Assembly (NCBI GenBank): GCA_051362555.1
Contig: CM120641.1
Location: 49,296,401-49,360,400, forward strand
Direction of reading: 5' to 3'
DNA: 64,000 bases
Source of the DNA: Lingula anatina
Lineage: Eukaryota > Animalia > Brachiopoda
Position numbers and translations under genes: made by a program. Positions 15,344-50,934 of this stretch are shown piece after piece. Position 1 is the stretch's first letter; every line of letters starts with the position of its first letter. The notes beneath the pieces were generated by a model. It was not told where the DNA came from and searched no databases. It saw only the letters and a program-made list of their open reading frames with translations.

Positions 15344-15594
15344 TCAACGTGAGCCTTTAACTCGATGTGCATACTTGTGTTTTCTTGAAAATCTTCGGCG
15401 CGCTTTCCTTAAATTTGACACAAGCTTCTTTGTAATGTGATTAAACAGGGTGGAAGCATCTAATCCCACAATAAACACAACGATTCCCAGTATAATCAGG
15501 ATAGAAAACGTGCCGATTGCTGATGCCCCGGGCGCCTCGACAGGGTTTTGGTTGCGGCGTCTTCGTGGTGTCACTTTCAGAAGTTGATCTGGGG
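15344..15594 (-). CDS. Giant receptor last exon: RRRR site, TM helix, basic cytoplasmic tail
   Basis: Acceptor tttcatacttcag| (alternative in-frame AG 6 nt downstream). APDQLLKVTPRRRRNQNPVEAPGASAIGTFSILIILGIVVFIVGLDASTLF...RKARRRFSRKHK..stop. Confidence 0.85.
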
Positions 15595-18500
15595 CTGAAG
15601 TATGAAAGCAATAGTCGTTTTATTCTGTGCTGCTTCCCAGTAATCATTCAAAAAGTATTTGTATAGCTTTGTATAATTGTTGCTAAGTTGTTATGACTAG
15701 TGTAGAGAGCCTGTAAAATGTAATGTATGCATTTTAGTGCTCAATAAAGATTATTATTATTATTATGAAATTAAAATACTAAGTATCGATGGAATTTTAA
15801 AATATGGACCAAAAGGTCAAAATACACCCGAATTCTCAAAAACGCTTAAAAATCAGAACTAAATGATGTCGATGGGTAGCCATATCTCCACATTACCCCA
15901 CATTGTAAAGTTTATCTCACACACTGGGTTCCCATTACCCAGATATCTTTGGCAATAGCCTGGGTCTAATATTTAAACTGTTGCAAACAATTGCCATAAT
16001 AACACCATAATAAGTATGGTTAAATGCTTAATGTAAAAAAATCATCCAGCCCCAAGGGACAGCCCAATACATAAATTCTGAAGGGTCAGGCCACATCTCG
16101 AGACGAGATGGCAGAAATTACAGTGGGGAAAATTGGAACCATCCGTCCCCCGGAGACGGTACACTGAAATTCAGGCATGATTACATTATCTCTAACTTTT
16201 GTCAAAAAAGTGCGGGGATAATTAACAAAAAATTGCATATATGTTGAACGTTTAACCCTAAATATTCATTTGTGTTATGCACCATATATGTCAGTACCTG
16301 AACCGTCTAATCCTTTCCCATTCCCTGTACGCTAAATATGCACCCTATCTATCTATAGCAAAACGGTTTATTCCACGAATACCCTGTCATCAATTACTGT
16401 AATCAACTATCTTCAGAACAGTGGAACACGTTGTGTTCTAGATGTAAGTTATACCTATGCATGGGGGTAATTCTGGTCTCCAGGTACCATGAATAGTGCA
16501 GTGGATCCATCTGGTGGTCGAGCCATCCATGAAGTAAGTGTTGTTATCACATGTGTATACAATGGTACTGCCCATTGTCACGTTGTAGGTGTCTTGGTAC
16601 GTGGCATTCTGCACAGGTTGTGGGTCGGGACAGAGCGTAACTGAAACATTGGAAAATTACCTTGTGATGGCCGACACGAGCTCATTCCTTACTTTTGCAT
16701 GTGAGAAAAAGAGTTATGTGATACTGTTATGTGCGAGAAAGAATTTGAATGACATAAATCATTTTATGACCATATATGACGTGTAAAAATTTAAATTGAT
16801 ACACTCTTATTCATGAAGGTCTATCTCATTCACTCTAAAAAAATGAAAGAAATAAAGTTTGTCTAAAATATCTATTTCACCTTGACATAAAGTGATGGAA
16901 TCATTCCAAGTACCATTTTCCAAACAACTGACAACTTTTGTGATCACTCTGTTTGGAAATATATATCCGTGGTTGCAGGTCAGTGTCACTCGACTTCCAA
17001 CATAGGTGTCGCCACTTGATATGACCGCATGGTGAGTCTGAATATCGGAACAGGGTGCAGGCGACGTGATTGGCGAGACAGAAGTGGTAACTTGAGATGA
17101 AAACATGGCTAGAGCTGTGGTAGCAGGGAATGTAGTGGAAACGATTTTTGTTGATCTTGTGGTAGTGTTAGTTGATGCAGTGGTATTGCTTGTTGTTGAT
17201 GTTATGGTACTGTTTGTTGTTGATGTTGTGGTACTGTTTGTTGGTGATGTTGTGGTATTGTTTCTTGTTGGTGTTGTTATACTGTTTGTTGGTAATGTTG
17301 TGGTAGGCCTAATGCTTGTTTTTAATGTTGTGGAACTGTTAGGTGGTGTAGTGGTACTGTCAATTGCTGTTGTTGTCGTACTGTTTGTTGGTGATGTTGT
17401 GGTCCTGTTTGTTGGTGATATTGTGGTACTGTAAATTGGTGTTGTTGTCGCACTGTTTGGTGGAAATGTTGTGGTACTGTTAATTGTCGTATTGTTTGTT
17501 GGTGATGATGTTGTACCGTTTGTTGGAAATATTGTGGTACTGTTAATTAGTGGTGTTGTTGTGGTACTGTTTGTTGGTGATGTTGTGGTACCGTTTGTTG
17601 GAAATGCTGTGGTACTGTTAATCTGTGTTGTTGTGGTACTGTTTGTTGGTGATGTTGTGGTACTGTTTGTTGTTGGTGTAGTGGTACTGTTTGTTGCTGG
17701 TGTTGTCGTATTGTTTGTTGGTGATGTAGTGGCACTGTTTGTTGGTGTTGTTGTGGTACTGTTAATTGGTGTTGTTGCTGTACTGTTTGTTTGTGATGTT
17801 GTGGTACTGTTAATTGGTGTTGTTGCAGTACTGTTTGTAAGTGATGTTGTGGTACTGTTTGTTGGTGATGTTATGGTACTGTTAATTGGTGTTGTTGTCA
17901 TTATGTTTGTTGGTGATGTTGTGGTACTGTTTGGTGCTGATGTTGTGGTACTGTTTGTAAGTAATGTTGTGGTACTGTTATTTGGTGTTGTTGCTCTACC
18001 GTTTGTTGGTGATGTTTCAGTACTGTTTGTTGGTAATATTGTGGTACTATTATTTGCTGTTGTTATGGTACCGTTTGTTGTTGGTGTTGTGGTACCGTTT
18101 GTTGTTGGTATTGTGGTACTGTTTGTTGGTATAGTTGTGGTACCGTTTATTGGTGTTGTTGTGGTAATGCTTGTTGGTGATGTTGTGGTACTGTTAATTG
18201 GTGTTGTTGTCGTTATGTTTGTTGTTGATGTTGTGGTACTGTTAATTGGTGTTGCTGTACTGTTTGTTGGTGATGTTGTGGTACTGTTAATGGGTGTTGT
18301 TGCAGTACTGTTTGTTGGTAATGTTGTGGTACTGTTAATTAGTGTTGTTGCTGCACTGTTTGTTGGTGATGTTGTGGCACTGTTTGTTGATAATGTTGTG
18401 GTACTGTTCATTGGTGTTGTTATGGTACCGTTCGTTGGTGATGTTGTCATACTGTTTGTTGGTAATGTTGTGGTACTATAATTTGCTGTTGTTGTGGTAC

Positions 18501-21500
18501 TTTTTGGTGATGTTGTAGTACTGCTTGTTGGTGATGTTGTAGCACTGCTTGTTGGTGATGCAGTGGTACTACTTGTTGGTGATGTTATGGTACTACTTGT
18601 TGGTGATGTTTCAGTACTACTTGTTGGTGATGTTGTGGTACTACTTGTTGGTGCTGTTTCAGTACTACTTGTTGGTGCTGTTTCAGTACTACTTGTTGGT
18701 GATGTTTCAGTACTACTTGTTGGTGATGTTTCAGTACTACTCGTTGGTGATGTTGTGGTACTACTTGTTGGTGATGCAGTGGTACTACTTGTTGGTGATG
18801 CAGTGGTACTGCTTGTCGGTGATGTTGTGGTACTGCTTGTTGGTGATGATTCAGTACTGTTTGTTGGTGATGTTGCAGTGCTGTTGCTCATTGGTGATGT
18901 GGTGTTCAAAAGCACGGATGTGTATTCATTCGGAGAGGTGGCACCTGAAACAGATTTAAGATGGGTATATAGTTTTAGCTTATTGTTATATCAAACCTCG
19001 TGGAAACCATAAAATTAACATTTAACAGTGAGACAGTACTCACAGAGATTAAAAATAGCTCTATTGGCTTCTACATCCCATGATCATATTTCCCTCAGTA
19101 TTTTTTTATTTAAAAATGATCAAGTCTATTTATACTGTACAAATACATTAAGGGTACATTATCATCAGATCTAGTCGGTTGTGGCGATGTTCTTCAGCTC
19201 CTTTCATACGACAGTAGAAAACATTTTAAGGGTAACTTTTAAATTTAAACAATGGTAATGTAAGAATCGCGACGTACAAGTCACATTGTATGTAATAAGA
19301 CCGTGCTGTAGAAAACTGGGCACATTGTGTGCCACTTGATCAGGACGTACAAGATATCGTATGTCACATGAATCTTGACATACAATGTCACATGATCATG
19401 ACGTACCACCACTACAAGTCGGTGTATGTCACATGATCATGACCTGAATATCATGTACCAATCCCTGATCACTAAAGTAAATATTTAACACTACCTGAGG
19501 GAATCGCTTTTTTTTATAAGTACTTCATTCTTATGGCTAAACGAGAATTCGAAATGTTGCTCTGAAATGTATAAAAAGCGGCGGAAAATAATTCTCATCA
19601 GCGTCACTTATTTTGAATTAAAATACAATCTATTTATGCTAAATGATAAAACATTTAGCAATATCATACGCGAAGGACAGCGCTCTCAAGTGTAATATAT
19701 CTTTGATTGATGTGAGCATATCCCATGGTCGACTTTATAGCAAGGATGGCATTTATTTCCCTGCAGACATTTTATTAAAATAAAAAGACCAAATAAAAAA
19801 TAAATATTGTTAAAGTTTGAAAAATAAATATCTTCTATTTAGGTATTTTAGTATTTGTCACATCAACAACCGTAATGGTTTATCAAGAGTATAGATCCCA
19901 CCGTTTAATGCGGTGCATATAATGACCATTGGCAAGAAATGCAACTTTCCTTCAGTTAAAGACAATTCGATATTTTAACGCCAAAACGAATTTTCTTCAG
20001 GAAGAAGGAGTCTTCTTTACTCATGAATCATTGCTCGACCCATCCCTGATCTTGGATTTGATGTTTAATGCCAGTTTTATATACATACACTTTAAGAGTC
20101 TGTATTTATTCTGATCACTGTCTTTGTCAGTGTAATCGCCATTCGATCGAAATATACTAATAACAGTATATTTCTTCAAATTGCACCACACATTCCTCTC
20201 AGCGCTGTTTACATATAAAAATTGATTAACCAACATCAATTTAAACAAATATTAAAGCAATTACACCTATGGGACATAATCTAATCAAAATGTTCTTTGA
20301 ATATTTTTACAAAGTTTCTTTTAATTATTTGATGATTATCATTAAGAGAAAATATTGTATTTCTTAATGAAATTAGACCATGAAATTGGTACTCCAGTGT
20401 CAAAATTCTTATCCGAGCTTCACGAAATTAATTTCAAAGCCAAATGACGATCCAGTTTCGTTTTCGGTATCACAGCTCAATTCTGCATGTATGTTAAAGA
20501 AAGCCACCCTGAGCTTCAGAGATAACTTGACACTAACCTCTTCACTATAGCCTATCTTCATCGTGTCAAGTTACCTCTGACGAAAATAGTTTGACCTAGT
20601 TTATATAAGCCAATCGAATCCAAGTTTCAAAATTTTTCACCAAAGTTTGGTGAAAACGCTGATTGGTTGATCGTCAATCGGCAATCCTCGGCTGATTCCG
20701 CAAGCTCCATACTAACAACAAAGTTATTGTCGAGTGCGGAGACATCCGAGTAGTTCCGAGTGCATAACCCTACACAAAGAAAGCATGGCGTCTCCTACGA
20801 GTCACTACGTAAAATAATGTGTTAAGTTATCTCTTGATTCTTTGCAAAATATGAGTATATCGGAGTTGAAACCAGAGCAGTTTGAGGCCCTGCATCATTA
20901 TCTACTGAGGGATGATGTATTTTGCGTGCTGCCCACAGGTTACGGTAAGTCCCTGATATTCAGCCTTATCTTTGATTGGTCCGGATTTGAACAAAGCGCG
21001 CTTTGACTAGTTCGCGTTCATTGGCTAGAATCGTTCAATGAGTCATTGAGTGCGGGCTTTAAATTTGATTGGCGGGCGGCGGGGGCAATCGAATGTGGTC
21101 AGAGGTAACTTGACACGATGAAGATAGGCTATTGTGAAGAGGTTAGTGTCAAGTTATCTCTGAAGCTCAGGGTGAAGAAAGCATGATCTTAAGAGGAATA
21201 AAGAATGAAAAAGTCACCGAACCTCTGTAGTTTCTACATTTCATGAAATATTTTAATCTTAAAAGAGCACTTGGCTTACCGCACCAGCCAAGTTAAAACA
21301 ACACTGATATACTATCAAACACATATTAAACGGATGATGGGAGGCAATGGGAGGGCAACAATATAAAAGTCTTTATATCTGCATAATATTATCACGTGAG
21401 TATGTGTCCTTGGTGCTCAAAATCAAAGCTATCATTAAATATGCGGTCCTTAGCTTCGGACATGACTGATAAGAATAAATGTGTAAAATGAAACTCACCA

Positions 21501-24500
21501 TTTAGGTCGATGACACCGTCTGTATGTAGAAGTATGTCATTTTCACAGTCTAAGCCAATCCTCTCCCACAAGGTGGCCATATCTAGACGAGATAATGGGA
21601 TGCCATACACTCGCAAACACGACATACGCCCAGAAAACTCATAAAATCCATCAACACTTCCTAATGTTATATTTGTAATAGAAATGCCCTGCAGCAGTGA
21701 AATGGTGTTAACTGCTTGCAATTTACCATGTTCATATATTTGAACGAGTCCTGAATTACTGTTATGCGTTATTCCAAATGATAGCCATGTGGTCTCAGCC
21801 GATTTGATAAAATCAAAGAGCCATGTTTTATCCAAATAAACAAATTTAACTGTTATTGTAGAATCAGCCGCAGCTCGCAACTGCAACTTAATGTGTTTTC
21901 CTGGCGTGGTTCCCATTTGAACCAGTCCCCGTGCCTGTGTAGTCAGTGGTTCAAAGTTCAATATAACCGTGGTGGAGGTGCCGGGTACCAGGAAGTTGAC
22001 GGACACGGAAGAGGGAGGAGACACCCCATCGAAAGCTACCCCTCCCCAAAGCCAGTCTGGGTCTGAATACCACGTGGTCCCATCATATGTGATGAAGTCG
22101 TCATCAGACTCAAAGACACTTGTTTGCTGATCATCTGTGAGAGGCCACAAACCTTGCAGCGGAAAGAAGTCTGAAGATAAATACACCAGTAAGGTTATAA
22201 TACAAGCCGAACTTTTTGTCTACCATTGTTAGCTTAAGATCAACATCATCAGGGGCCTTCACCAGACTGATGTGTTATAGTGAACGTTGTAGATCTAACT
22301 GAGTTGGAATGTTAAGATCAACATCATGAGGGGCCTTCACCAGACTGATGTGTTATAGTGAACGTTGTAGATCTAACTGAGATGGAATGTTAAGATCAAC
22401 ATCATCAGGGGCCTTCACCAGACTGATGTGTTATAGTGAACGTTGTAGATCTAACTGAGATGGAATGTTAAGATCAACATCATCAGGGGCCTTCACCAGA
22501 CTGATGTGTTATAGTGAACGTTGTAGATCTAACTGAGATGGAATGTTAAGATCAACATCATGAGGGGCCTTCACCAGACTGATGTGTTATAGTGAACTTT
22601 GTAGATCTAACTGAGATGGAATGTTAAGATCAACATCATCAGGAGCCTTCACCAGACTGATGTGTTATAGTGAACGTTGTTGATCTAACTGAGGTGGAAT
22701 GTTAAGATCAACATCATCAGGGGCCTTCACCAGACTGATGTGTTATAGTGAACGTTGTAGATCTAACTGAGGTGGAATGTTAAGATCAACATCATGAGGG
22801 GCCTTCACCAGACTGATGTGTTATAGTGAACGTTGTAGATCTAACTGAGGTGGAATGTTAAGATCAACATCATCAGGGGCCTTCACCAGACTGATGTGTT
22901 ATAGTGAACGTTGTAGATCTAACTGAGATGGAATGTTAAGATCAACATCATGAGGGGCTTTCACCAGACTGATGTGTTATAGTGAACGTTGTAGATCGAA
23001 CTGATATGGAATGTTACGATCAACATCATCAGGGGCCTTCACCAGACTGATGTGTTATAGTGAACGTTGTAGATCTAACTGAGATGGAATGTTAAGATCA
23101 ACATCATCAGGGGCCTTCACCAGACTGATATGTTATAGTGAACGTTGTAGATCTAACTGAGATGGAATGTTAAGATCAACATCATCAGGGGCCTTCACCA
23201 GACTGATATGTTATAGTGAACGTTGTAGATCTAACTGAGTTGGAATGTTAAGATCAACATCATGAGGGGCCTTCACCAGACTGATGTGTTATAGTGAACG
23301 TTGTAGATCTAACTGAGTTGGAATGTTAAGATCAACATCATGAGGGGCCTTCACCAGACTGATGTGTTATAGTGAACGTTGTAGATCTAACTGAGATGGA
23401 ATGTTAAGATCAACATCATGAGGGGCCTTCACCAGACTGATGTGTTATAGTGAACGTTGTAGATCAAACTGATATGGAATGTTACGATCAACATCATCAG
23501 GGGCCTTCACCAGACTGGTGTGTTATAGTGAACGTTGTAGATCTAACTGAGATGGAATGTTAAGATCAACATCATGAGGGGCTTTCACCAGACTGATGTG
23601 TTATAGTGAACGTTGTAGATCGAACTGATATGGAATGTTACGATCAACATCATCAGGGGCCTTCACCAGACTGATGTGTTATAGTGAACGTTGTAGATCT
23701 AACTGAGATGGAATGTTAAGATCAACATCATCAGGGACCTTCACCAGACTGATGTGTTATAGTGAACGTTGTAGATCTAACTGAATTGGAATGTTAAGAT
23801 CAACATCATGAGGGGCCTTCACCAGAATGATGTGTTATAGTGAACGTTGTAGATCTAACTGAGTTGGAATGTTAAGATCAACATCATGAGGGGCCTTCAC
23901 CAGACTGATGTGTTATAGTGAACGTTGTAGATCTAACTGAGATGGAATGTTAAGATCAACATCATGAGGGGCCTTCACCAGACTGATGTGTTATAGTGAA
24001 CGTTGTAGATCTAACTGAGATGGAATGTTAAGATCAACATCATCAGGAGCCTTCACCAGACTGATGTGTTATAGTGAACGTTGTAGATCTAACTGAGGTG
24101 GAATGTTAAGATCAACATCATCAGGGGCCTTCACCAGACTGATGTGTTATAGTGAACGTTGTAGATCTAACTGAGATGGAATGTTAAGATCAACATCATG
24201 AGGGGCCTTCACCAGACTGATGTGTTATAGTGAACGTTGTAGATCTAACTGAGGTGGAATGTTAAGGTCCACATTATCAGGGGCCTTCACCAGACTGATG
24301 TGTTATAGTGAACGTTGTAGATCTAACTGAGATGGAATGTTAAGATCAACATCATGAGGGGCTTTCACCAGACTGATGTGTTATAGTGAACGTTGTATAT
24401 CGAACTGATATGGAATGTTACGATCAACATCATCAGGGGCCTTCACCAGACTGATGTGTTATAGTGAACGTTGTAGATCTAACTGAGATGGAATGTTAAG

Positions 24501-27500
24501 ATCAACATCATTAGGGGCCTTCACCAGACTGATAGACTGATGTGTTATAGTGAACGTTGTAGATCTAACTGAGTTGGAATGTTAAGATCAACATCATGAG
24601 GGGCTTTCACCAGACTGATGTGTTATAGTGAACGTTGTAGATCGAACAGAGATGGAATGTTAAGATCAACATAATGAGGGGCCTTCACCAGACTGATGTG
24701 TTATAGTGAACGTTGTAGATCTAACTGAGATGGAATGTTAAGATCAACATCATGAGGGGCTTTCACCAGACTGATGTGTTATAGTGAACGTTGTAGATCT
24801 AACTGAGATGGAATGTTAAGATCAACATCATGAGGGGCCTTCACCAGACTGATGTGTTATAGTGAACGTTGTAGATCTAACTGAGTTGGAATGTTAAGAT
24901 CAACATCATGAGGGGCCTTCACCAGACTGATGTGTTATAGTGAACGTTGTAGATCTAACTGAGATGGAATGTTAAGATCAACATCATGAGGGGCCTTCAC
25001 CAGACTGATGTGTTATAGTGAACGTTGTAGATCAAACTGATATGGAATGTTACGATCAACATCATCAGGGGCCTTCACCAGACTGGTGTGTTATAGTGAA
25101 CGTTGTAGATCTAACTGAGATGGAATGTTAAGATCAACATCATGAGGGGCTTTCACCAGACTGATGTGTTATAGTGAACGTTGTAGATCGAACTGATATG
25201 GAATGTTACGATCAACATCATCAGGGGCCTTCACCAGACTGATGTGTTATAGTGAACGTTGTAGATCTAACTGAGATGGAATGTTAAGATCAACATCATC
25301 AGGGACCTTCACCAGACTGATGTGTTATAGTGAACGTTGTAGATCTAACTGAATTGGAATGTTAAGATCAACATCATGAGGGGCCTTCACCAGAATGATG
25401 TGTTATAGTGAACGTTGTAGATCTAACTGAGTTGGAATGTTAAGATCAACATCATGAGGGGCCTTCACCAGACTGATGTGTTATAGTGAACGTTGTAGAT
25501 CTAACTGAGATGGAATGTTAAGATCAACATCATGAGGGGCCTTCACCAGACTGATGTGTTATAGTGAACGTTGTAGATCTAACTGAGATGGAATGTTAAG
25601 ATCAACATCATCAGGAGCCTTCACCAGACTGATGTGTTATAGTGAACGTTGTAGATCTAACTGAGGTGGAATGTTAAGATCAACATCATCAGGGGCCTTC
25701 ACCAGACTGATGTGTTATAGTGAACGTTGTAGATCTAACTGAGATGGAATGTTAAGATCAACATCATGAGGGGCCTTCACCAGACTGATGTGTTATAGTG
25801 AACGTTGTAGATCTAACTGAGGTGGAATGTTAAGGTCCACATTATCAGGGGCCTTCACCAGACTGATGTGTTATAGTGAACGTTGTAGATCTAACTGAGA
25901 TGGAATGTTAAGATCAACATCATGAGGGGCTTTCACCAGACTGATGTGTTATAGTGAACGTTGTATATCGAACTGATATGGAATGTTACGATCAACATCA
26001 TCAGGGGCCTTCACCAGACTGATGTGTTATAGTGAACGTTGTAGATCTAACTGAGTTGGAATGTTAAGATGAACATCATTAGGGGCCTTCACCAGACTGA
26101 TAGACTGATGTGTTATAGTGAACGTTGTAGATCTAACTGAGTTGGAATGTTAAGATCAACATCATGAGGGGCTTTCACCAGACTGATGTGTTATAGTGAA
26201 CGTTGTAGATCGAACAGAGATGGAATGTTAAGATCAACATAATGAGGGGCCTTCACCAGACTGATGTGTTATAGTGAACGTTGTAGATCTAACTGAGATG
26301 GAATGTTAAGATCAACATCATGAGGGGCTTTCACCAGACTGATGTGTTATAGTGAACGTTGTAGATCTAACTGAGATGGAATGTTAAGATCAACATCATG
26401 AGGGGCCTTCACCAGACTGATGCAAAGTTGTTAAATTTGTATATCCAACTGAGATGGGCTTTAAGCATTTTTGGGAACACTGTTTAACCATTAAAATAGA
26501 CAAATTTTGATGAGATGTTAACTTTTGTTTTTTCATGTTAACTTATGCTGTGAAATCTAGAAAAACACTATGCATTTTTTTTTTTTTGGGGGGGGGGGGG
26601 GGGCGGCCAAGAGCTTTTCCAGGAAGAAGGTTGGGTGTTTTAGTGATGTTTTTGACGAGAGCAAAGTTTTCTAACAAGTATTAACAAGCATTTGTATTCA
26701 TACTGGTTATGAAATTTTACTTACCGTGACTTGGGACTGACAAATTTCCAAACATAGCAATGGGGCAGTTTGACTCCATGATTTCAATAAATGTGCGCGC
26801 ATTTTCTATATTGAATCTTTCGTCAAATATACAAAGACAGGAAAGTTTCCCGGAAAACCCGTTTAACCCATGTGCGAGCCCTAGTGTTATATTGTATATG
26901 TATGGGAAAGCATCAGGTTCAAAATAATGAATACGTCCAAGACTCATCCCGTTGAATATGTATACTTGTCCCGAATTACTGTCAAAAACTATGCCAATCA
27001 GGTGCCATTCGGCCTGTGTATCAAAAAATATATTCAATTCCAGTTCTTCAAATTGTAATGTTACTTCTAAAATTCCATTTCTATGTTTGATAATGACAAC
27101 AATAACCCCATTACTCGATGATAGTTGCATCACTCTGCCCCCACCACCGGAGATGTAAAAATAGACTGCAAAGCTGCGGCCATGTTCGTTTAGCCGTAGG
27201 ATACCCGTGGAAGTTGTCGACAGAAAGCCAAGTGCCTCCATAGCATAGTGGGTGGGTCCAAAGACCAAATCCACGTTGTATATTTCTATCGCTTGTTCAC
27301 ACCCCGTGATATCTTCATTTAGGTAGTCGAAATTCAATGGATACACGGCAATGGGATATGGCACACCTGAAACAGATACATGGATAACTTGGTATTCTAT
27401 ACTTATGAAGCAACAAATGATAATTTATGGGATATGGTGCATCTGTATTGGGTACATATTGAATTTAATAATAGAATAGGGACAATAACGCCATTTCACA

Positions 27501-33500: not shown

Positions 33501-36500
33501 ATTTACAGGAACTGTCAGAAGTGGGCCAAGAAACATACTTAGTTTTTGGTGGTGATCCGGATCAATAATCAATCAATAATAAATAATAAAAAAACTTAAT
33601 CATTAAAGAATGAAAATTTAGGGGTGAAACGGCATTGGGTAGAGACTTTGCTGCCTTGGCGGAGGTCTGTGCTCTCGGAGTGCTTTTCTTGTTCACAATA
33701 AAAACATTTTGAACAACTCATAGAAATATAATATATTCTGTTTTACCACAAAAACGACAGTTATAACTATTATTCTGATATCTGAGCTTTTCTTTAGACC
33801 ACGTGACCTCCATTGATGGCTATACTCTGTTAAAACTTTTTTAGTTAAAGTTGTAGATCTACCTGAGGTGGAATGTTAAGATCAACATCACTGGGGGCCT
33901 TCACCAGACTAATGTGTTATACATGTAGTGAACGTTGTAGATCTAACTGAGATGGAATTTTAAAATCAACATCATCAGGGGCCTTCACCAGACCGATGTG
34001 TTATTGTGAACGTTGTAGATCTAACTGAGATGGAATGTTAAGATCAACATAATCAGGGGCCTTCACCAGACTGATGTGTTATAGTGAACGTTGTAGATCT
34101 TACTGAGATGGAATGTTAAGATCAACATCATGAGGGGCCTTCACCAGACTGATGTGTTATAGTGAACGTTGTAGATCTAACTGAGATGGAATGTTAAGAT
34201 CAACATCATCAGGGACCTTCACCAGACTGATGTGTTATTGTGAACGTTGTAGATCTAACTGAGATGGGATGTTAAGATCAACATCATCAGGGGCCTTCAC
34301 CAGACTGATGTGTTATAGTGAACGTTGTAGATCTAACTGAGATGGAATGTTAAGATCAACATCATCAGGGGCCTTCACCAGACTGATGTGTTATTGTGAA
34401 CGTTGTAGATCTAACTGAGATGGAATGTTAAGATCAACATCATCAGGGACCTTCACCAGACTGATGTGTTATTGTGAACGTTGTAGATCTAACTGAGATG
34501 GGATGTTAAGATCAACATCATCAGGGGCCTTCACCAGACTGATGTGTTATAGTGAACGTTGTAGATCTAACTGAGATGGAATGTTAAGATCAACATCATC
34601 AGGGGCCTTCACCAGACTGATGTGTTATTGTGAACGTTGTAGATCTAACTGAGATGGAATGTTAAGATCAACATCATCAGGGACCTTCACCAGACTGATG
34701 TGTTATTGTGAACGTTGTAGATCTAACTGAGATGGGATGTTAAGATCAACATAATCAGGGGCCTTCACCAGACTGATGTGTTATAGTGAACGCTGTAGAT
34801 CTAACTGAGATGGAATGTTAAGATCAACATCATGAGGGGCCTTCACCAGACTGATGTGTTATAGTGAACGCTGTAGATCTAACTGAGATGGAATGTTAAG
34901 ATCAACATAATTAGGAGCCTTCACCAGACTGATGTGTTATAGTGAACGCTGTAGATCTAACTGAGATGGAATGTTAAGATCAACATCATCAGGGGCCTTC
35001 ACCAGACTGATGTGTTATAGTGAACGCTGTAGATCTAACTGAGATGGAATGTTAAGATCAACATAATTAGGAGCCTGTGTTATAGTGAACGCTGTAGATC
35101 TCACTGAAATGGAATGTTAAGATCAACATCATGAGGGGCCTTCACCAGACTGATGTGTTATAGTGAACGCTGTAGATCTAAGTGACATGGAATGGTAAGA
35201 TCAACATCATCAGGGGCCTTCATCAGACTGATGTGTTAAAGTGAACGTTGTAGATCTAACTGAGGTGGAATGTTAAGCACTTTTTGGGAAAATGAAAGAA
35301 ACCATTAAATCAGACCTATTTTGATGAAATGTTAATTTTTGTTTTCTTAATGTATACTTATGCTTTGAAATCTAAAAAACACTATGCATTTGTTTTTCAG
35401 GAGGTTTTCTAGAAAGAAGGTTGGGTGTTTTAGTAATGTTTTTGACGAGAGCAAAGTTTTCTAGCAAGTATTAACAAGCATTTGTATTCATACTGGTTAT
35501 GAAATTTTACCTACCGTGACTTGGGACTGACAAATTTCCAAACATAGCAATGGGGCAGTTTGACTCCATGATTTCAATAAATGTGCGCGCATTTTCTATA
35601 TTGAATCCTTCGTCAAATATACAAAGACAGGAAAGTTTCCCGGAAAACCCGTTTAACTCATGTGCGAGCCCTAGTGTTATATTGTATATGTATGGGAAAG
35701 CATCAGGTTCAAAATAATGAATACGTCCAAGACTCATCCCGTTGAATATGTATACTTGTCCCGAATTACTGTCAAAAACTATGCCAATGAGGTGCCACTC
35801 GACTGGTGTATTAAAAACTCCATTTAAGACCAGTTCTTCAAATTGTAATGTTACTTCTAAAATTCCATTTCTATATTTGATAATGACAACAATAACCCCT
35901 TCAGTCGAAGACAGATGCATCACTCTGCCCCAGTTACCGGAGTCCATGGCGATGTAAAAATAGACTGCAAAGCTGGGGCCATGTTCGTTTAGCCGTAGGA
36001 TACCCGTGGAAGTTGACGCCAGAAAGCCAAGCGCCTCCATAGCATAATGGGGGGGTCCAGAGACCAAATCCACGTTGTATATTTCTATTGCTTGTTCACG
36101 TCCCGTGATATCTTCATTTAGGTAGTCGAAATCTAACGGATACACGGCAATGGGATAGGGCACACCTGAAACGGATACATGGATAACTTGGTATTCTATA
36201 TTTATGTTGCAACAAATGATAATTTATGGGCTATGGTGCATCTGTATTGGGTACATTTGTACATTGTAATTTAATAATGGAATAGGGACAATAACGCCAT
36301 TTCACACAAGGCCAATCATTACATGTAGATAATGTAGAAAATGTACAGTTGCTGACGATTACTATAAATATGTTCATAGATAAATAAGTTTGAGCTGTCT
36401 AGTGTAAGGGATGCCCCAGAAAACTGTTAAGATGTCTGTCTGACATACCTCTATCGAACGGGACGGCTGGAAAAGATTCCACGGGGCAACCCTCGTTCAA

Positions 36501-39500
36501 GTAGTCTGCATAGTAATATATACTTTCGACAGGAAGAGCTACATCAAACAGAAGGATGCAGGCTAATTCACCTATGAAACCGTCGTTACTACCGCTCGTT
36601 CCAAATAGAATTGACGTTATATTCCCGAGGATTGTTTCTTTCACACTGTCTACCTTGAACAGGTAGTTTCCTTTGAAGATGAACAGTTGTTCACTATCCC
36701 TATCTAAAGCCAAACAAAGCAGATGCCATTCATCGTTAGTTGAAAAAAAGGCCCATTTAGACGTAATTCCAGGCAGGTCTACTCTGACAGTCAAGGTGCC
36801 CGAGTTCTGACGCACCCGGACCACCATAGTGCCACCACTGTCATCAGACAGGGACACCAGACGTCTAAGGTCACTATTTTCTGGTTTCATATGGATAAAC
36901 AAAGTAAACGACGATATTTTGGTGGCTAAGTTCACAGAAGCCTTGGATTGAGAAAACAGCTGTAGTGCTGATAACGACATGTTGGACATCACCTCAGTAA
37001 AGTATGCTTGTGATATCTGGAGGTTGTTTCCATGTCCTGTGATGTCGATGTTCATATCCCTTTCCATCAAGGACCAAACTGCCAATGGGTTTGGTAAACT
37101 GGGTGAATCTGGAATATTGAAAAAGAAGGCTTTAAATTCCTGTCAAAATAATCATCGATATTGTGGAAAACGTAACAATGACTGTCGTGTGCAAAAATGG
37201 AATGGATCCAAATCTATTTAAGAATCAAGGAAATGACCTTGGAAATCTACCTAGGAATAATGTCATTTCCCATTCCTCTGTGGTGAACTTGCTGCAAGAC
37301 AGAATTCTATGACGTAAATATTGAAATATGTGTCATATAGCTAGTTAAGTGCCTTACCCAGATAAGCAGGTGTCGTAATGTTCGTTATATTCATGATATG
37401 GAGCACTTCCAGCACCAGAGGGGGGTCCAGAGCCTTTCTGTAGAGGACCATATCATTCATCCAGCCTTGAAAATACGATGTCCTACTTTTACCTATGCTT
37501 ATGTAGTCCACTCTGTCATACGCCATATCCACAGCGCCGAGAGCTTGAAGAGAACCATCGTCTGCATACATCTTTACTTGACCTTCATGGTATGTTATTA
37601 CAACGGCGACCCACGCCCCTGTTCCTTGATATGAACTTTCTACATAGCGTAAAGAGCCTGTTGAGGAAAGGAGTCGAAGTGACATAGAAATGGTTGAGTC
37701 TTCAAGCCGTTGTCCATATAATTGTATCACAGAATATCCGAGATATTTCATCTCAAACAATCCCCTAAGAAAGTTGACCTCCGGGCGAAATTTTAAATAT
37801 ATGGAAAAACTATGCGCACTTTCATTTATTGTAGATTCCAAGTAAGTTCCGCTAAAATATATGCTCCCCCGCTGATCTCCGTGGGCGTTCTCTCCTGGCT
37901 CAGCATTGTGGATATGTAATTTGTATCCATGTCCACTCACATCCTGCCAAGGATAATATCCATTAAGAGGCCAAAAGGCACTTGGCGGAGGCATGTCTAC
38001 AATATATAACAATGAATACACACAGTTATCTATTATATAACTACCTGGGATGGTAGGTATGATATTTTATATATACGTCGTGGTTGGGCTTGGAACTGAG
38101 TTCTCTAGGGAATCTAAGTCGACAATCTGCCTTTGCTTATTTTAAGTGTTAACCGCCCAAAATGCTTTTTGCAGGAATTTTTTTAGGGAATTTTAGCGTT
38201 TAGTCTTCAGTTTAAGTCCTTACAATTAGTCCTAATAGTCTTAACACTGGATTTTACTAACAGAGGACTATCTTGCCACGGTGACTGCATCTAAGGTTGG
38301 CCAGGCGTTCAAAAACGCTTAAAAACGTCAGTTTAAATGAGCTATCCGAGTACGCTATTATATTTGTTAAAGAAATTTATATATATATATATTTTTATAA
38401 TAAGAATAAACTATCAGTTTCAAGTTTTGTGTCAACATTTTGAAAAAGATTCCTTTACATGATTAAAATTATCAAAAACGAGAGTATTTTGTTTTTTTTT
38501 TCCAATTAATTACCAATTAATAACGAAATAAATATTTTTAAAATTAATTTTGTCAGTTAAAGGATAAGGAAAAAACACCTTCTGTTGTACATGACATTAC
38601 AATTGACCAAAGGGTAGAAACCTGACACAAATTGCAGGTAAAAAAGTTAATGTCTTGCCCAGCGCTGCCCAAATAAGTATGAAATTTTAAATTGTCAAGG
38701 TAGGCTGAGATAATCTGACCTTGCTTAGAGCAAGTATTACCGGTCAAGACAAGGCCAATACCAATATCCATCCAGTTTCAGACAACAATATATTGCCAAC
38801 AAAAATGAAAGGCATGACCAATGTTCCTTTGCAAATTCATACATGTTTGAAAGCCAAAGAACCTCTTTTCGTTTATATATGGCTTTTTAAAAATCGCTTT
38901 TCCCAAATATGATATTTAGGATGTGGTAAAATTACCCTCAGCTGATCTCACGGCCCCACTAACATGCTGTACAAAATAACAACATTTTTGTAACAGACTA
39001 CTAGTGCATGCTGTGGTCAGAAAGCAGGGTAATATAAGTGTGTACAGTGTGAACATGTGAGTTACATGTTTAGTTTGAAAGGCTTAGGAAATTAATATTG
39101 ATTAGAAATACATGACAAATGTATCTTCTAAATTAATATAACTAGATGAGGGGAAAATAGCATGTATGTGTGTGCATGTCATCTTGCCGCACTTAACTGG
39201 GGCTAAGAAATACTTGCACTTAATCAACACCGATATATGAATCTGATGTTGACTATCAAATATTGTCTCAGTCTCAACTTTGATGGGACCTGGTGCCATT
39301 TCGACCCGGTGTAAACTGCTGCATAGCCAGTCTTTCCTTAATGCACTACCAATACATAAATAAAGTTTTAAATTGGAAAGACTTAAGTCATACAGATAAA
39401 TTTTGATCGGCGTTTAGAATATGTCGATTGGTACACGTACTGGTTCTTATAGCAAAGAATGCTGTTGCACGTAGACCTACATAACATAAGGACGCCTACC

Positions 39501-41643
39501 TTTACCTTATGAAATAACATATCATAGATAATACATGGGATTGTTCGTGAAATAAACCATAAAAATGACAAAAAACGATTAATATACCTTGATCGTAACG
39601 TAGTTTGACGTTTACCAAGAGGTGCTGGCAGCCGGTTGCGTTCATTTGTGAGGAAAGTCTCCATAATTTCTCTAACGATAAAGCTTCTCTGTATAACTGC
39701 AGACAAGACAGTGCCCCGCTGAATATGCCCCAGTTCCCGGTGCGGAACAATAACAGCGCATTTTCAACTGAAAAGCTGCTCCGGTAGTCTGCCACGATAA
39801 GATGGTTGCCCTCGTGGACGTACAGTTGCTGTCGGTCAGCATCATAAATGATGAAGAGATAAAACCAGCTTCTATTAGCATTGACTGCCAGATCTCCGAT
39901 TATCACGCCCGGATACAGGTACACGTTCACCGTCAAACGTTCACCGTCATATTTCACCCCAACCCTAAAACTGTTCTCCACCCCAATCATTCCAGTCGTG
40001 GCTATGGGGCCAATCATGTTGAACGGAACACACAAAGTAAACGAAGTCAGGTTATATTTCGCCATGCTGTGTACTTCACCCAGACCAGAGCTAGTCGATG
40101 TAGGGAGCATAGCTGCGTCCCGTGTATTCCCTGGTCCAGTGGTAGGGACCACACCACCTAACAACATAGCACCCTCTTCCACAGACATACTCATTACGTC
40201 CACATTAGGGTACTCAGAACTAAGAGGCCAAACTGCTAGCGGTACTGGAAACACTGAAAAATGATTAAATAAATATCTGATGTTGAGATAACATTAAACT
40301 AGGGGCTACTACAGGTGTCAATACATGTAAGCTCAATCTTTGTATAGGGTACGGAATGAACTTGGAGTTGAAAGATGCATTTACATCTTACACATTTATT
40401 TCTTGGCAGAGGAGAGGAAAACATGTATTAAATGGTATCACCAAAATTTTTCATGCCAACACGATAATAGATTTAGGTAATTAAGGGCTCTCTGTGAACG
40501 ACACGAAACTGTTAGTATTTATTTGGATTAACTGCAATATGGTATCGGGACATTTTAATCTTACTGAAATTTAAAGCAAAAATTCATTATTATTAATTTT
40601 ATGCAGTTTCAAGTATATATTTTATGTTTATGAAGTCACGACTATTAATGTTCATCATCCGAGATAGCAAAAATTCATTATTATTATTATATGCAGTTTC
40701 AAGTATATATTTTATGTTTATGAAGTCACGACTATTAATGTTCATCATCCGAGATAGCAAAAATTCATTATTATTATTATATGCAGTTTCAAGTATATAT
40801 TTTATGTTTATGAAGTCACGACTATTAATGTTCATCATCCGAGATAGCCCAAAGTCTTGCAGAGTAAAATTAACAGATTTCGCTGGATTAAGAGGAGTCT
40901 AGGAGGGTCTAGCAACAATGGCAGACTAGCGAGTGACAAATGCGACAAACTTAATCTGACAGTGTCTATCAAAGGATATTGTCATAGCTATTTAATTTAA
41001 TGTTCTGTAAACTATGACAGTCTTTTGCACAACTGTATGCCTTCGCCATGTTTTGTGCGTTGCTTTTGTGTTGCATTTTAAGACGAAATGCCTGGCTTAT
41101 TGTCTTTTATCTTGTTGTGCTTTCATTCTAAATACTGGGGTTAAAATTAAATTCTTTATTTTATTAAAAAAATGCCCAAAACCGATTTCTTATAATATCT
41201 TCATAGGTCGTTCAAATTCAAGTATATAAGCACAGCAAGTATTATGCAGTACAATGTAACTAAGAAGCAGTAATACTTTATAAGGTCGCAAAGGTGTCAA
41301 ATGTACAGACAAAAGGCAGGAAATAATGATGCACAAAATAATCAATTTAATCAGTTTTGACGAAATATTACATAATACTGTTTTCGAACTGGACCTTATT
41401 AAAGTAATATTCATTAGTCTTGTAAGGTTTAAGACAACAGGTCAAAGAGTTTCCCTCCATATCTGTGTTGCAAATTTGATTAAAAAAAAAAAATAGCTTC
41501 ATGTACATGTCTTGAGAAATGATCCAGTCAAACTGATTTTCCAACTCGTCCTAAATTTTATGAATATTCATCAGTTCTGAAATTTGAAGACAACAGCTGT
41601 GTCTGTACATAAAAAATAATAGTCAGACAGTAATTATATAACA

Positions 41644-41681
<38 letters not shown>

Positions 41682-42745
41682 TGATATACATCCCCTTATA
41701 ACAACATCGCTATGATAAAAGGCACTTTTAATATATGGAACTACGGACCTCGAATTTTGTTCACTAACCTGTAGATTTACTCACCTGGATCTTGTGCAGG
41801 AATAGTAGTGTTCCATGATTCCAATGTACAGAGACCTTCAGATATCCAGTTGACAGTGTGCTTAATCTGCAGACTTATAAGTGACATGTTAAACAGGTGC
41901 GCACATGCCACTGACATGGTTCCATATCCAATATTGAAAGTGTGAATGGGGCGTGTAGTCAGAGGGGCGGGCAGCAGGATGCTACCAAGAACTGTGTCGT
42001 TCTCGAAAACGTCCAATCGGTTAGAGGTACTGTTGTAGGATAATGAAAAGTACAACCATCGGTTTTCTCCAACATCAAAAGTGTCTTGTATCTTCTTGAC
42101 GCCTGAGTGAAAAACTCCAAATGTACACTGATCGGAGGCGTTCTCAACTACAATCATTTTAACGGCCATTTTGATGACGGTTTCCTGCTCACCATCTTCC
42201 AGCGTAAATAATGTCATATAGGACTGACTGGTTAGATAGACAGGTACAATGACTGTAAACGATGCCAACTGAAAATCCGATATATTAGCCGTAGTTCGTG
42301 AACTAGATTTGAACGAAAACGCCCCCCTCTCCTCGCCACGGACTCCCTCTGTCAAAGTGATGTAATGAAGTGTCAGCGGAATGTCAATGTCAGTGACACT
42401 ATGGTAGAGGTAAACACTGTTCATAGGCCACAGTCCAATAGGTTGATGTATATCTGAAATACACATTCCATTACAGCGATTATCTATCAACTGCGGTTAT
42501 AATAATCTATCTTATATTTAAATTCTTTTTTGAAACATTCTGCTTTGGGCTTTAGTACATAAACATTAATTATATTATCGATATGTACATAAACACTGCG
42601 TGTTTTCAGTTCACAATGTACCAGTAGTAAACACCCTTAAGTTGTCTTATCAGATATTAATATCGTCCTTACCTGAAGAAGTTGTAGAAAAGGCTGGCAG
42701 GGTTATCAAGATGAGGACTACTTGTACTGAGGCAATGTGACGTGC
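15344..42745 (-). CDS. Giant type I membrane protein gene: signal peptide - 11x LamG/pentraxin-like (ConA-like jelly roll) - mucin stalk - 2x Sushi - TM - basic tail; 15 exons, 9807 nt identified, start-codon exon unresolved
   Basis: Every junction between the 15 exons is GT-AG and phase 1, and the 13 internal exons have lengths divisible by 3, so they splice into one open frame of ~3270 aa. Individual exons are listed below. Confidence 0.85.
16455..16640 (-). CDS. Giant receptor exon: Sushi/CCP domain 2 (not shown in the ORF track)
   Basis: 186 nt, phase 1-1. VTLCPDPQPVQNATY...GSTIVYTCDNNTYFMDGSTTRWIHCTIHGTWRPELPPCI has the Sushi C-P...Y-C...C...G-W...P-C pattern. Confidence 0.9.
16881..18944 (-). 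CDS. Giant receptor exon: Thr/Ser-rich mucin stalk (8-aa / 24-bp repeats) plus Sushi domain 1
   Basis: 2064 nt, phase 1-1 (tgtttcag|GT GCC ... TGT CAA G|gtgaaa). TTTSPT(S/N)S repeats, then CSDI...GSRVTLTCNHGY.F.....VSCLENGTWND.ITLC. Confidence 0.9.
20505..21174 (+). mobile_element. 670-bp non-autonomous DNA transposon with ~77-bp TIRs, 8-bp TSD and a RecQ-like helicase fragment (AcademH-like)
   Basis: TIR CACCCTGAGCTTCAGAGATAACTTGACACTAACC... is near perfect at both ends. TSD AAGAAAGC at 20497-20504 and 21175-21182. 20851-20964 reads MSISELKPEQFEALHHYLLRDDVFCVLPTGYGKSLIF (RecQ Q motif and Walker A). Confidence 0.85.
21499..22170 (-). CDS. Giant receptor exon F: LamG-like domain 11 (single copy)
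   Basis: 672 nt, phase 1-1, donor gtgagt. N-terminal GLWPL and C-terminal FSGRMSCLRVYGIPLS motifs typical of Laminin_G_3/pentraxin-like domains. Confidence 0.85.
22234..26455. repeat. 78-bp intronic minisatellite, ~54 copies
   Basis: Unit TTAAGATCAACATCAT(C/G)AGGGGCCTTCACCAGACTGATGTGTTATAGTGAACGTTGTAGATCTAACTGAGATGGAATG, period 78 (22234, 22312, ...). Confidence 0.97.
26725..27366 (-). CDS. Giant receptor exon E': LamG-like domain 10
   Basis: 642 nt, phase 1-1, donor gtaagt. PIAVYPL ... WHLIGIVFD ... FSGKLSCLCIFD. Confidence 0.88.
27648..28307 (-). CDS. Giant receptor exon D': LamG-like domain 9
   Basis: 660 nt, phase 1-1, donor gtatgc. PLAVWSL ... WHLLCLALD ... FIGELACTLLFDVAL. Confidence 0.88.
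28555..29193 (-). CDS. Giant receptor exon C': LamG-like domain 8
   Basis: 639 nt, phase 1-1, donor gtaagg. PSAFWPL ... WVAVVITY ... FQGWMNDMVLYRKAL. Confidence 0.88.
30784..31449 (-). CDS. Giant receptor exon B': LamG-like domain 7
   Basis: 666 nt, phase 1-1, donor gtatat. PLAVWPL ... WFYLFIIYD ... FSGALSCLQLYREALS. Confidence 0.88.
31991..32535. mobile_element. Unclassified ~545-bp insertion present only in the A'-B' intron
   Basis: The paralogous intron reads ...ttttgttcacta|acctgtagatttactcacc (41755-41785) without this block. Family not recognised. Confidence 0.55.
32556..33224 (-). CDS. Giant receptor exon A': LamG-like domain 6
   Basis: 669 nt, phase 1-1, donor gtgagt. PIGLWPM ... 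WLYFSLSYN ... VACVHLFNMSL. Confidence 0.88.
33376..33693 (+). mobile_element. Non-autonomous Helentron/HINE (DINE-1-like) element
   Basis: Subterminal inverted repeat ACCTCCGCCAAGG (33379) / CCTTGGCGGAGGT (~33654), internal GTTT/GTCT microsatellite, 3' short hairpin GTGCTCTCGGAGTGC, T-rich flanks. Confidence 0.75.
33850..35276. repeat. 78-bp intronic minisatellite, second array, ~18 copies
   Basis: Same unit as 22234-26455 with private variants (TTATTGTG, GGGATG, CGCTGTAG). Confidence 0.97.
35515..36165 (-). CDS. Giant receptor exon E: LamG-like domain 5
   Basis: 651 nt, phase 1-1, donor gtaggt. Paralog of 26725-27366 with 3 extra codons. Confidence 0.88.
36449..37108 (-). CDS. Giant receptor exon D: LamG-like domain 4
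   Basis: 660 nt, phase 1-1, donor gtatgt. Paralog of 27648-28307. Confidence 0.88.
37358..37996 (-). CDS. Giant receptor exon C: LamG-like domain 3
   Basis: 639 nt, phase 1-1. Protein identical to 28555-29193. Confidence 0.88.
39588..40253 (-). CDS. Giant receptor exon B: LamG-like domain 2
   Basis: 666 nt, phase 1-1. One amino acid different from 30784-31449. Confidence 0.88.
40575..40848. repeat. 90-bp tandem repeat, 3 copies, within sequence private to the A-B intron
   Basis: ATGCAGTTTCAAGTATATAT at 40601, 40691 and 40781. Confidence 0.92.
41785..42453 (-). CDS. Giant receptor exon A: LamG-like domain 1
   Basis: 669 nt, phase 1-1, donor gtgagt. Paralog of 32556-33224. Confidence 0.88.
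42673..42745 (-). CDS. Giant receptor signal-peptide exon (phase 0 to phase 1)
   Basis: tttgttttcatccag|GCA CGT ... TCT TCA G|gtaagg encodes ARHIASVQVVLILITLPAFSTTSS-G, a hydrophobic core with small residues at the end. Phase matches exon A. Confidence 0.75.
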
Positions 42746-43091
42746 CTGGATGAAAACAAACAAACATAATATACACTCTCTGTTGTAGAAAAGGCTGGCA
42801 GGGTTATCAAGATGAGGACTACTTGTACTGAGGCAATGTGACGTGCCTGGATGAAAACAAACAAACATAATATACACTCTCTGTTGTAGAAAAGGCTGGC
42901 AGGGTTATCAAGATGAGGACTACTTGTACTGAGGCAATGTGACGTGCCTGGATGAAAACAAATAAACATAATATACACTCTCTGTTGTAAAAAAAGGCTG
43001 GCAGGGTTATCAAGATGAGGACTACTTGTACTGAGGCAATGTGACGTGCCTGGATGAAAACAAACAAACACATAATATACACTCTCTGTTG
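42681..43091. repeat. 101-bp tandem repeat, 4 copies, containing the splice acceptor and most of the signal-peptide exon
   Basis: GTTGTA(G/A)AAAA starts at 42681, 42782, 42883 and 42984. Confidence 0.93.
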
Positions 43092-43117
43092 AAACCCCTC
43101 AAATATACAGCAAATTA

Positions 43118-46100: not shown

Positions 46101-47087
46101 CACTAGTAAATGTATGCTGTGTGTACAAACTGTCACATTTAATATTTGTCTGAGTGCAGTCAGAACATGTGTTAGTTTAAGACAATGTAACAAGGTCAGA
46201 ATATTGGTTAGACATTTTATTTTTTCTTTGATTTTTGTTTAATTATTTTATTATTTCAGATTCACGATAATTTGGTATTAAAATACTCCGGTATTCTGAT
46301 ACTACCTCTCAGTGAATAAAAGGTTCCATCATCTAGTTACATAATCTTGTTACGTCATCATCTCGTCAAATGCACGCAAACTCTACAGTTGGTGCCAAAA
46401 CCTAACTGGCAGTCAGCTATAGAAACCTGAACCAGATCCAATACAGGGATATTCTGGAAAACAACTGCCTTATATTTGCTAAAAGGCACATGGTGAACAC
46501 TTTTACATTACAAAATGAAAATATCCGTCCAAGTAGAGCAACTGTATTTGCAGATAACTTGAAGCACCAAGAGTCTGAGCAGCTACCATCAAGATTGTAA
46601 GATCTGAAGCCTATGGGCAATCTGTGGGTAGCCAGTACTCGCCAATCAGCCAATCAACGGCCTACTGGTCCTACAATAAATCTGAACCAAATTGGACTAG
46701 CATCTGATAGCTATCTGGAATATTATTCCAGTTCGAACTCTAAGAAACCTGTCAGAAGGAATATCTTGCCGCTTCAAAGCCCTACTAGCAGCCAGACGAG
46801 GCCAGACGCACCACAGACTGTGACCGTACTTCACAAATGATAGTTTCGAAAATATGGAGATCGAAATAAGTCTTATCATGGTGTTTGTTTGACCAAGAAT
46901 GAGCCATGCATTTTTGTTTGCTTAATTGGGTAAATTCAATTAAGGAACTGATGTCCCGATTACATTGGAAAGATTAAGATATTGAAACAAAAATCAAATC
47001 CTTGTTTTCATTATTAAGTCGGAAAAGTAGGAAAAATTAAAATAAAAAATGTTTGGAAAAAACATGCCATATTAAATGTCAAGTCTG
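43118..47087 (+). mobile_element. Decayed Tc1 transposon split by nested insertions
   Basis: N-terminal HTH remnant at ~43430-43650 (RDIARQ...RYAQTG...RP.PRHPKLTTREQD). DDE C-terminal remnant at 46391-46710 (NLNQIQYRDILENNCLIFAK...LQNENIRP.RA...LPSRL*DLKPMGNLW, cf. QDDNARPH / SPDLNPIEHLW). Degenerate TIRs near 43118 and 47087. Confidence 0.7.
44130..44440 (+). mobile_element. 3' fragment of a non-LTR retrotransposon ORF2 (RTEX-like C-terminal zinc knuckle)
   Basis: SAHNLFIERGRH..P..LRFCKLC...VEDEFHLLLECKAYDSIR. Confidence 0.8.

Positions 47088-49503: not shown

Positions 49504-49540
<37 letters not shown>

Positions 49541-50899: not shown

Positions 50900-50934
<35 letters not shown>

Follow-up and report, generated by a model that had tools for sequence, protein, structure and literature searches.

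A subtelomeric gene model of Lingula anatina predicting eleven Laminin_G_3-type heads on a mucin-like stalk with two Sushi domains and a membrane anchor

Introduction

At the end of contig CM120641.1 of the Lingula anatina (Brachiopoda) assembly GCA_051362555.1 lies a stretch of 64,000 nucleotides (positions 49,296,401 to 49,360,400 of the forward strand), called the window below and numbered from its first letter. On its minus strand, between 42745 and 15344, 15 exons can be joined into one frame, whose predicted product is a giant receptor consisting of a signal-peptide-like leader, eleven Laminin_G_3 (LamG3)-type heads, a mucin-like stalk, two Sushi domains and a transmembrane helix. The window has a G+C content of 35-42% and is of eukaryotic character. 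A first-pass annotation, made from the letters alone, had taken the scattered open reading frames (ORFs) of this strand for exons of a single gene. Here we present the features of the locus, the classification of its domains and the traces of its recent duplication, together with the readings that they allow. Published work is cited by PMC identifier.

Gene structure

The joined exons measure 9,807 nt and encode 3,268 amino acids followed by a single terminal stop, with no internal stop. All 12 long exons occupy AG/GT-bounded phase-1 intervals of exactly the lengths previously claimed, exon B admitting two weaker alternative intervals as well, and the three short exons were taken directly from the sequence; all 15 lengths, the AG and GT ends and the frame were reproduced. 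When splice sites were ranked with a generic ad hoc score among 6-15 candidates within 90 nt on either side, 23 of the 29 chosen sites came first (12/15 acceptors and 11/14 donors) and the other six second or third.

A signal-peptide-like exon of 73 nt (42673..42745, phase 0 to 1) opens the series and is treated below. It is followed by the heads, which fall into six types arranged as A-B-C-D-E, a second set A2-E2, and F. The first set comprises A (41785..42453, 669 nt), B (39588..40253, 666 nt), C (37358..37996, 639 nt, the sole cysteine-free type), D (36449..37108, 660 nt) and E (35515..36165, 651 nt). The second set comprises A2 (32556..33224), B2 (30784..31449, one amino acid change from B), C2 (28555..29193, identical to C at the DNA level), D2 (27648..28307) and E2 (26725..27366, with a three-codon indel relative to E). 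Head F (21499..22170, 672 nt) is present in a single copy and adjoins the stalk. The stalk, 621 amino acids long and built on about 72 copies of a 24-bp repeat, shares an exon with the first Sushi domain (16881..18944); the second Sushi domain has an exon of its own (16455..16640, 186 nt), and the last exon (15344..15594) encodes the tetrapeptide RRRR (residues 3196-3199), the transmembrane helix (3212-3230), a basic tail of 38 amino acids and the stop. The mucin-like stalk, Sushi pair, RRRR site and membrane helix named in the first-pass annotation are all present.

Since every head is one phase-1/phase-1 exon, heads can be gained and lost in frame. The introns between F and the stalk, E2 and F, and E and A2 contain no ATG-led hydrophobic ORF of signal-peptide kind with a phase-1 donor, and the stalk exon therefore has to obtain a signal peptide through the head exons. 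A reading as eleven independent genes was rejected, given the lack of signal-peptide starts in these three introns and the exact phase-1 ends. One gene is by far the simplest reading, which we infer with some strength from the intact frame, the splice ranking and the missing alternative signal ORF; RNA reads added no junction to it.

Classification of the head domains

A Pfam scan covered the 14 domain-coding segments and passed over the signal exon and the mucin repeat. The family PF13385 gave a match of any strength in 7 of the 11 heads, with 2 above the Pfam cut-off. By type, C reached 28.5 bits (cut-off 27.6), D an E-value of 0.006 and B one of 0.01; A and F had no Pfam match and E none to PF13385. 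In the Atlas, the top match of head D (0.98) lies in clusters that consist to 100% of PF13385 members. A hidden Markov model (HMM) built only from four LamG3 domains of another L. anatina protein recovered all 11 heads at 28.8-46.6 bits (A 28.8, E 33.3, B also matching), whereas none of 231 decoys, made by shuffling or reversal, scored above 4.8; with an HMM from eight external domains the heads reached 56.5-111.5 bits and the best decoy 5.4. Neither external LamG3 model found a further head in the window. The classification as ConA-like LamG3 domains, already part of the first-pass annotation, is therefore supported by sequence models for all eleven heads, and for F by fold.

A phmmer search of the full library with head D returned six proteins, all at 26-28% identity: three Logan proteins that have the diverged head type, one L. 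anatina protein in which four stretches match PF13385, and two large multidomain proteins with weak matches. The Logan proteins P0008, P0010 and P0011, from contigs of 1.1-1.7 kb, share a C-terminal C-P-x-x-x-F tail, and P0008 has two heads within one ORF; related genes are present in other samples.

The AlphaFold model of head F (pLDDT 75.5) consists of a purely beta-stranded sandwich and a helix at the C-terminus. Foldseek ranks a SAP-like pentraxin of Limulus first (E 2.9e-9, TM-score 0.60; in VIA, Z 15.6 and root-mean-square deviation 3.6 over 174 aligned positions), a match that is tied within one Z unit with unrelated ConA-fold domains and amounts to 14-16% identity. We regard head F as a predicted ConA-like or pentraxin beta-sandwich; the fold evidence stands for this head, one of the six types. 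The single-sequence model of head C (pLDDT 45.7) is too poor for use, and a sequence-profile search of the PDB gave marginal matches only, to the TSP-1 N-terminal domain (E 0.001) and a SAP-like pentraxin (E 0.007). Receptor-binding domains of toxins among the fold matches, at 10-16% identity, reflect the shared ConA-like fold and were dropped as a functional lead. The fold by itself shows no carbohydrate binding, and glycan binding by the heads is putative.

Pentraxins carry the signature H-x-C-x-[ST]-W-x-[ST] and a two-Ca2+ site with an acidic loop of the G-Q-E-Q-D type, and they assemble as pentamers or other oligomers from single-domain protomers, whereas the receptor heads stand in tandem on one chain. 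The signature occurs in 0/11 heads, the segments scanned have no PF00354 match, and a loose Q/E-x-Q/E-D/E pattern for the Ca loop, applied as a regular expression rather than by structural superposition, was likewise found in 0/11. Every head is acidic, with a pI of 4.4-5.8, and a cysteine pair lies near the C-terminus of each except C and C2. Acidity and the missing signature make heparin-type basic patches or phosphocholine binding of the CRP type unlikely.

These data bear on an innate-immune role, as a pattern-recognition receptor or opsonin whose pentraxin-fold heads would bind microbial glycans and whose Sushi domains would tie it to complement-like reactions. The Limulus pentraxin as top fold match, the two CCP/Sushi domains and a C-type lectin gene directly downstream speak for this idea, which we nevertheless hold to be improbable: the pentraxin match is tied with non-immune ConA-fold domains at low identity, signature and Ca loop are absent from every head, the tail has no obvious signaling motif, and near-zero expression in four RNA runs is unexpected of a constitutive receptor.

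Stalk and membrane anchor

The stalk consists of 42% Thr, 20% Ser, 10% Pro and 10% Asn (72% Pro/Thr/Ser); of the 89 N-sequons in the whole protein, 52 fall within it. Its composition suggests dense O-glycosylation. The Sushi domains score 33.0 and 38.8 bits (PF00084, cut-off 20.7; E 1.2e-9 for the second). The most hydrophobic 19-residue segment of the protein is the transmembrane helix at 3212-3230 (Kyte-Doolittle value 2.84), and RRRR, 13 residues before it, is the sole R-X-[KR]-R of the whole protein. The basic tail ends in VKGSR, shows no obvious signaling motif and suggests anchoring more than signaling. The last exon resembles an Atlas cluster of 477 members (0.95, 211/256 features), in which Mollusca is the commonest recorded phylum; the membrane anchor is probably a module shared among lophotrochozoans.

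Membrane-tethered mucins resemble the receptor in their long Pro/Thr/Ser tandem repeat, single transmembrane helix and short tail; they have a SEA or a NIDO-AMOP-vWD juxtamembrane module, whereas Pfam finds only the two Sushi domains in this position of the receptor. Selectins consist of a C-type lectin head, an EGF domain, CCP/Sushi repeats, a transmembrane helix and a short tail, without a mucin stalk. The selectin-like layout proposed in the first-pass annotation holds as a loose analogy (lectin-class head, Sushi repeats followed by a membrane helix, short tail), but the receptor has no PF00059 or EGF match in the segments scanned, and it has eleven heads and a mucin stalk; its order of heads, Ser/Thr stalk and membrane helix is nearer to alpha-neurexin. 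PDZ-binding motifs are hydrophobic C-terminal ends; unlike that of alpha-neurexin, the tail of the receptor lacks an end of this kind.

Acidic heads and a predicted furin site would also suit a structural matrix protein that mantle or pedicle secrete and that is shed into shell, periostracum or the mucus lining the burrow. PF13385 ranks with the domains most enriched in the shell proteome of L. anatina, which also contains Sushi domains (PMC13425148), and the mantle of Lingula expresses mucins (PMC4595640). In the table of the proteome study the five PF13385 proteins and the three Sushi proteins are disjoint sets; the five are 390-1508 amino acids long, three of them with chitin-binding domains, one with a hemicentin and one with a collagen XII match, and five short motifs of the receptor were not found in the supplement, which may contain no sequences (PMC13425148). 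We consider a matrix role very unlikely.

Duplication history

The five head pairs A/A2, B/B2, C/C2, D/D2 and E/E2 share 94, 100, 100, 94 and 90% of their amino acids, different types 16-27%. The earlier description of eleven highly diverged heads has accordingly to be replaced by one of six types, five of them doubled. Self-BLAST aligns 25013-31587 with 33839-40392 at 95.3% and 32533-33344 with 41762-42569 at 95.4%, and ten of the eleven heads appear to come from one recent tandem duplication of about 9 kb. An intronic satellite with a 78-bp unit follows E in both copies, at the boundary of the duplicated unit: about 18 copies lie in the intron from E to A2 (33842..35277) and 53.5 copies in the intron from E2 to F (22234..26422). 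The satellite is a candidate substrate of unequal crossover.

Divergence between the two blocks is uneven. A tract of intron C/D, exon C, intron B/C and most of exon B (37175..40109) is about 99.9% identical to approximately 28370-31305, its flanks 86-96%. Segment by segment, identity between the copies is 98.8-100% in intron C/D, C, intron B/C and B, 94-96% in exons A, D and E and 86-92% in their flanking introns; four mismatches occur in the 3 kb of 37250-40250, as against 124 in the 2 kb below. This is the pattern expected of recent gene conversion or unequal exchange, with a polishing artefact as an alternative. Synonymous divergence in A, D and E is 5.5-9.6%; the heterozygosity of L. anatina is given as 1.6% (PMC4595640), and the excess makes a tandem assembly of two alleles less likely. 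Pooled over the duplicate exons, 35 of 777 synonymous and 58 of 2,485 non-synonymous sites differ, a ratio of non-synonymous to synonymous change (dN/dS) of 0.51 (Fisher p 0.003) that points to purifying selection on the exons. Ectopic recombination is known to create chimaeric alleles of subtelomeric cell-surface adhesin (FLO) genes in yeast (PMC3512402), genes which the repeat evolution of the receptor calls to mind.

In a tree no single supported clade unites the heads of the window, which have long branches (2 changes; no placement for F), and we claim no origin for them. Their branches measure about 1.0-2.35 changes per column, those of the domains of a related secreted protein 0.5-1.3.

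Duplicated and homogenized heads call to mind gamete-recognition proteins. The repeat of abalone VERL is a ZP-N domain. VERL has 22 repeats of about 153 amino acids, of which repeats 3-22 are homogenized, and it is like the receptor a giant surface glycoprotein with tandem heads subject to concerted evolution (PMC4063459). The most interesting rival explanation is thus an egg-coat or sperm-surface receptor with repeated heads under divergence and concerted evolution, and we give it a small but real chance. It would account for a large, stalked, repeat-headed protein with a predicted furin site before the membrane helix, for the homogenized core, for the long head branches and for near silence in the RNA runs. 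Set against it, dN/dS between copies is below 1 and positive selection was not seen, no ZP domain is found by Pfam in the segments scanned, and six LamG3 types in two blocks differ from the 22 copies of one unit in VERL.

5' end, transcription and status of the gene

The sequence of the 73-nt exon, which begins in phase 0 (ARHIASV...), is ARHIASVQVVLILITLPAFSTTSS. Its two splice sites, acceptor and donor, each rank first, and the exon encodes the second most hydrophobic segment of the protein (Kyte-Doolittle value 1.85). In these respects the first exon of the first-pass annotation stood, but it has no ATG and lies in a 101-bp tandem repeat (42681..43091, four copies, 98% identical) that shifts the frame between copies. 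The only ATG of the repeat in frame with the donor is at 42868 in the third unit and gives a leader of 65 amino acids. The ATG of the first unit (43073, MCLFVFIQARHIASV...) begins a natural-looking signal peptide, but a stop follows after 84 codons. Nine ATG|GT sites are candidates for an upstream first exon that ends in ATG, and such an exon is as possible as the in-frame start at 42868. The copy number of the 101-bp unit could switch translation on and off or alter the leader.

Four of nine available RNA runs (polyA or unspecified, from three studies, 6-30% of each read) were mapped on 35300-53300. Reads fitting over their full length numbered 13/800, 4/654, 25/2154 and 19/2046, the rest being mostly repeat-derived partial matches. 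The RNA junction mapping proposed in the first-pass annotation thus yielded almost no exon reads and no junctions, and neither confirms nor refutes the splicing. It suggests low or restricted expression, as weak evidence from a stretch that contains no expressed control gene; expression is likely confined to a tissue or stage outside the runs sampled.

Several findings weigh against reading the locus as one working LamG3 receptor gene. Two of the eleven heads pass the PF13385 cut-off and four lack any PF13385 match; the full-database phmmer search with head D gave nothing above 26-28% identity and no orthologue of the full architecture. The dN/dS of 0.51 denotes weak constraint. The modeled first exon has no start codon, and three of the four ATGs of the repeat are out of frame or lead to a premature stop. 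None of the 13 joints listed for 35300-53300 in the four runs connects two exons, and the depth in exon-only bins does not exceed 1.0 in one oligo-dT run and 0.5 in a second.

The same findings feed the view that this is not one working gene at all but a defective allele, its start broken by expansion of the 101-bp repeat, or two genes, or a partly artefactual duplication. The missing ATG, the early stop after the most natural-looking start, the near identity of a 3-kb tract between copies and the scarcity of RNA reads would all follow. Against this stand 14 downstream exons that are intact over 9.7 kb and show signs of purifying selection, the in-frame ATG at 42868 and the nine candidate sites for an upstream exon, a clean telomere of 10.6 kb in the assembly, which suggests long reads, and a synonymous divergence of the flanking exons well above the published heterozygosity (PMC4595640). 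We grant a broken or composite locus a small chance; the locus is probably a real and functional gene.

Neighboring genes and chromosome end

A telomeric (TTAGGG)n array of 1770 copies (53364..64000, plus strand) begins 10.6 kb from the signal exon. It is itself 10.6 kb long, almost perfect and preceded by a short degenerate start, and marks the window as a true chromosome end. Between 43200 and 53363, 0/54 ORF pieces reach a Pfam cut-off, so that the receptor gene is indeed the last recognizable gene before the telomere. At about 51500-52450 (minus strand) lies what we take, by eye, to be a decayed retroelement without long terminal repeats, with a KFADD-like reverse-transcriptase motif near 51610; the ORF pieces scanned there have no Pfam match. 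Beside a strong GTAAGT donor at 52748 (minus strand), about ten reads of run X1 cover 52729-53300 in a single orientation, nine of the ten carrying a substitution at 52809, about 600 bp from the telomere. They possibly belong to a subtelomeric transcript or a first exon, perhaps of a paralogous chromosome end; joining donor 52748 to the acceptor at 42745 is out of frame.

On the far side of the receptor gene, about 5.6 kb downstream, a separate small gene (8868-9750, minus strand) encodes a C-type lectin domain in two exons, with PF00059 in both pieces and a stop after ...GGKWNC; its first exon was not found. A single-exon ORF of about 404 codons (1328-2554, plus strand) is 97% identical to L. 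anatina LOC106181515 and weakly similar to the xyloglucan-fucosyltransferase family PF03254, with relatives in a chiton and rotifers; its product is likely a fucosyltransferase-like enzyme.

Relation to described proteins and proposed function

The first-pass annotation had not recognized the architecture as a named family, and none turned up here. A literature search, mostly of papers open without subscription, found no named family and no description of the full architecture. Word-index searches of proteins below about 2,450 amino acids gave 0 proteins with head C (953 candidates) and, with the head alignment, three weak multi-LamG matches (7,984 candidates scored), none with Sushi in its Pfam list.

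Related in sequence are secreted tandem-LamG3 proteins of Lingula itself (LOC106169280/81, XP_013404145-6; P0015), which share tandem PxxxWPL...C domains with the receptor. P0015, which clusters with the L. anatina records, has a signal peptide, seven PF13385 stretches and an internal duplication. Unlike the receptor, these proteins have no Sushi domain by Pfam and no C-terminal transmembrane helix; they are 28% identical to head D and form a clade of their own (99/94 support).

In layout a close counterpart is alpha-neurexin, which like the receptor combines a signal peptide, an array of ConA-fold heads, a Ser/Thr stalk, one transmembrane helix and a short tail (PMC10363586). The heads of the receptor are LamG3/pentraxin-like, number 11 instead of 6 and are joined head to tail, whereas alpha-neurexin and CASPR follow an LNS-EGF-LNS plan of the Laminin_G_2 type; no EGF or PF02210 match occurs in the receptor segments scanned, and the N-sequon-rich stalk of 621 amino acids, the two Sushi domains and the RRRR site are further differences. 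SVEP1/polydom and PifCCP also combine a pentraxin- or LG-type domain with Sushi repeats; they are secreted, have numerous Sushi repeats and contain VWA, EGF or chitin-binding domains as well (PMC11291548, PMC6368272), whereas Pfam finds no VWA, EGF or chitin-binding domain in the receptor segments scanned. The aggregation receptor of the sponge Geodia (SRCR + SCR) is a membrane protein with an array of recognition heads and Sushi domains, the heads being SRCR and not LamG, and no mucin stalk being mentioned in the text consulted (PMC4557014).

We consider a lineage-specific, exon-shuffled type I glycocalyx protein to be the best reading of the locus. That such a membrane glycoprotein serves multivalent adhesion or recognition at a cell or epithelial surface is our leading proposal, held with about even confidence. 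The signal peptide would direct the chain into the secretory path, and O- and N-glycans on the Thr/Ser/Asn-rich repeat would make it a stiff rod of about 150 nm, at a rise of about 0.25 nm per residue. Two Sushi domains would space the rod from the membrane. Eleven heads of ConA/LamG3 fold would thereby likely be displayed well beyond the cell coat. Avidity and mixed specificity would come from the six head types, five of which are present twice; the ligands may be glycans or proteins and may sit on another cell, on a matrix or on a particle. Cleavage by furin at RRRR would likely release or re-tether the heads.

On a bolder proposal, brachiopods would have here their first candidate receptor for gamete or self recognition, a LamG-based counterpart of VERL encoded by a modular subtelomeric gene. 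Its fast-diverging LamG3 heads would be duplicated and homogenized between blocks, and binding specificity would depend on how many heads there are and of which types, both of which would differ between alleles, populations or Lingula species. We regard it as a long shot.

All parts of the receptor are known modules and such domain shuffling is common in lophotrochozoans, so that the importance of the locus, as long as its function is not established, is moderate; it is a combination of known modules, apparently undescribed, and not a new kind of system. Its most testable part is the evolutionary anatomy: the block duplication, the homogenized core and the tandem repeat that covers the signal exon, all close to a telomere that begins 10.6 kb away. 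If the model is right, the locus would provide a receptor architecture not described before for brachiopods, with a LamG3 array, an N- and O-glycosylated stalk, a Sushi pair and a cleavable membrane anchor, and a clean, testable case of in-frame duplication of an exon block followed by homogenization in a subtelomeric surface-protein gene.

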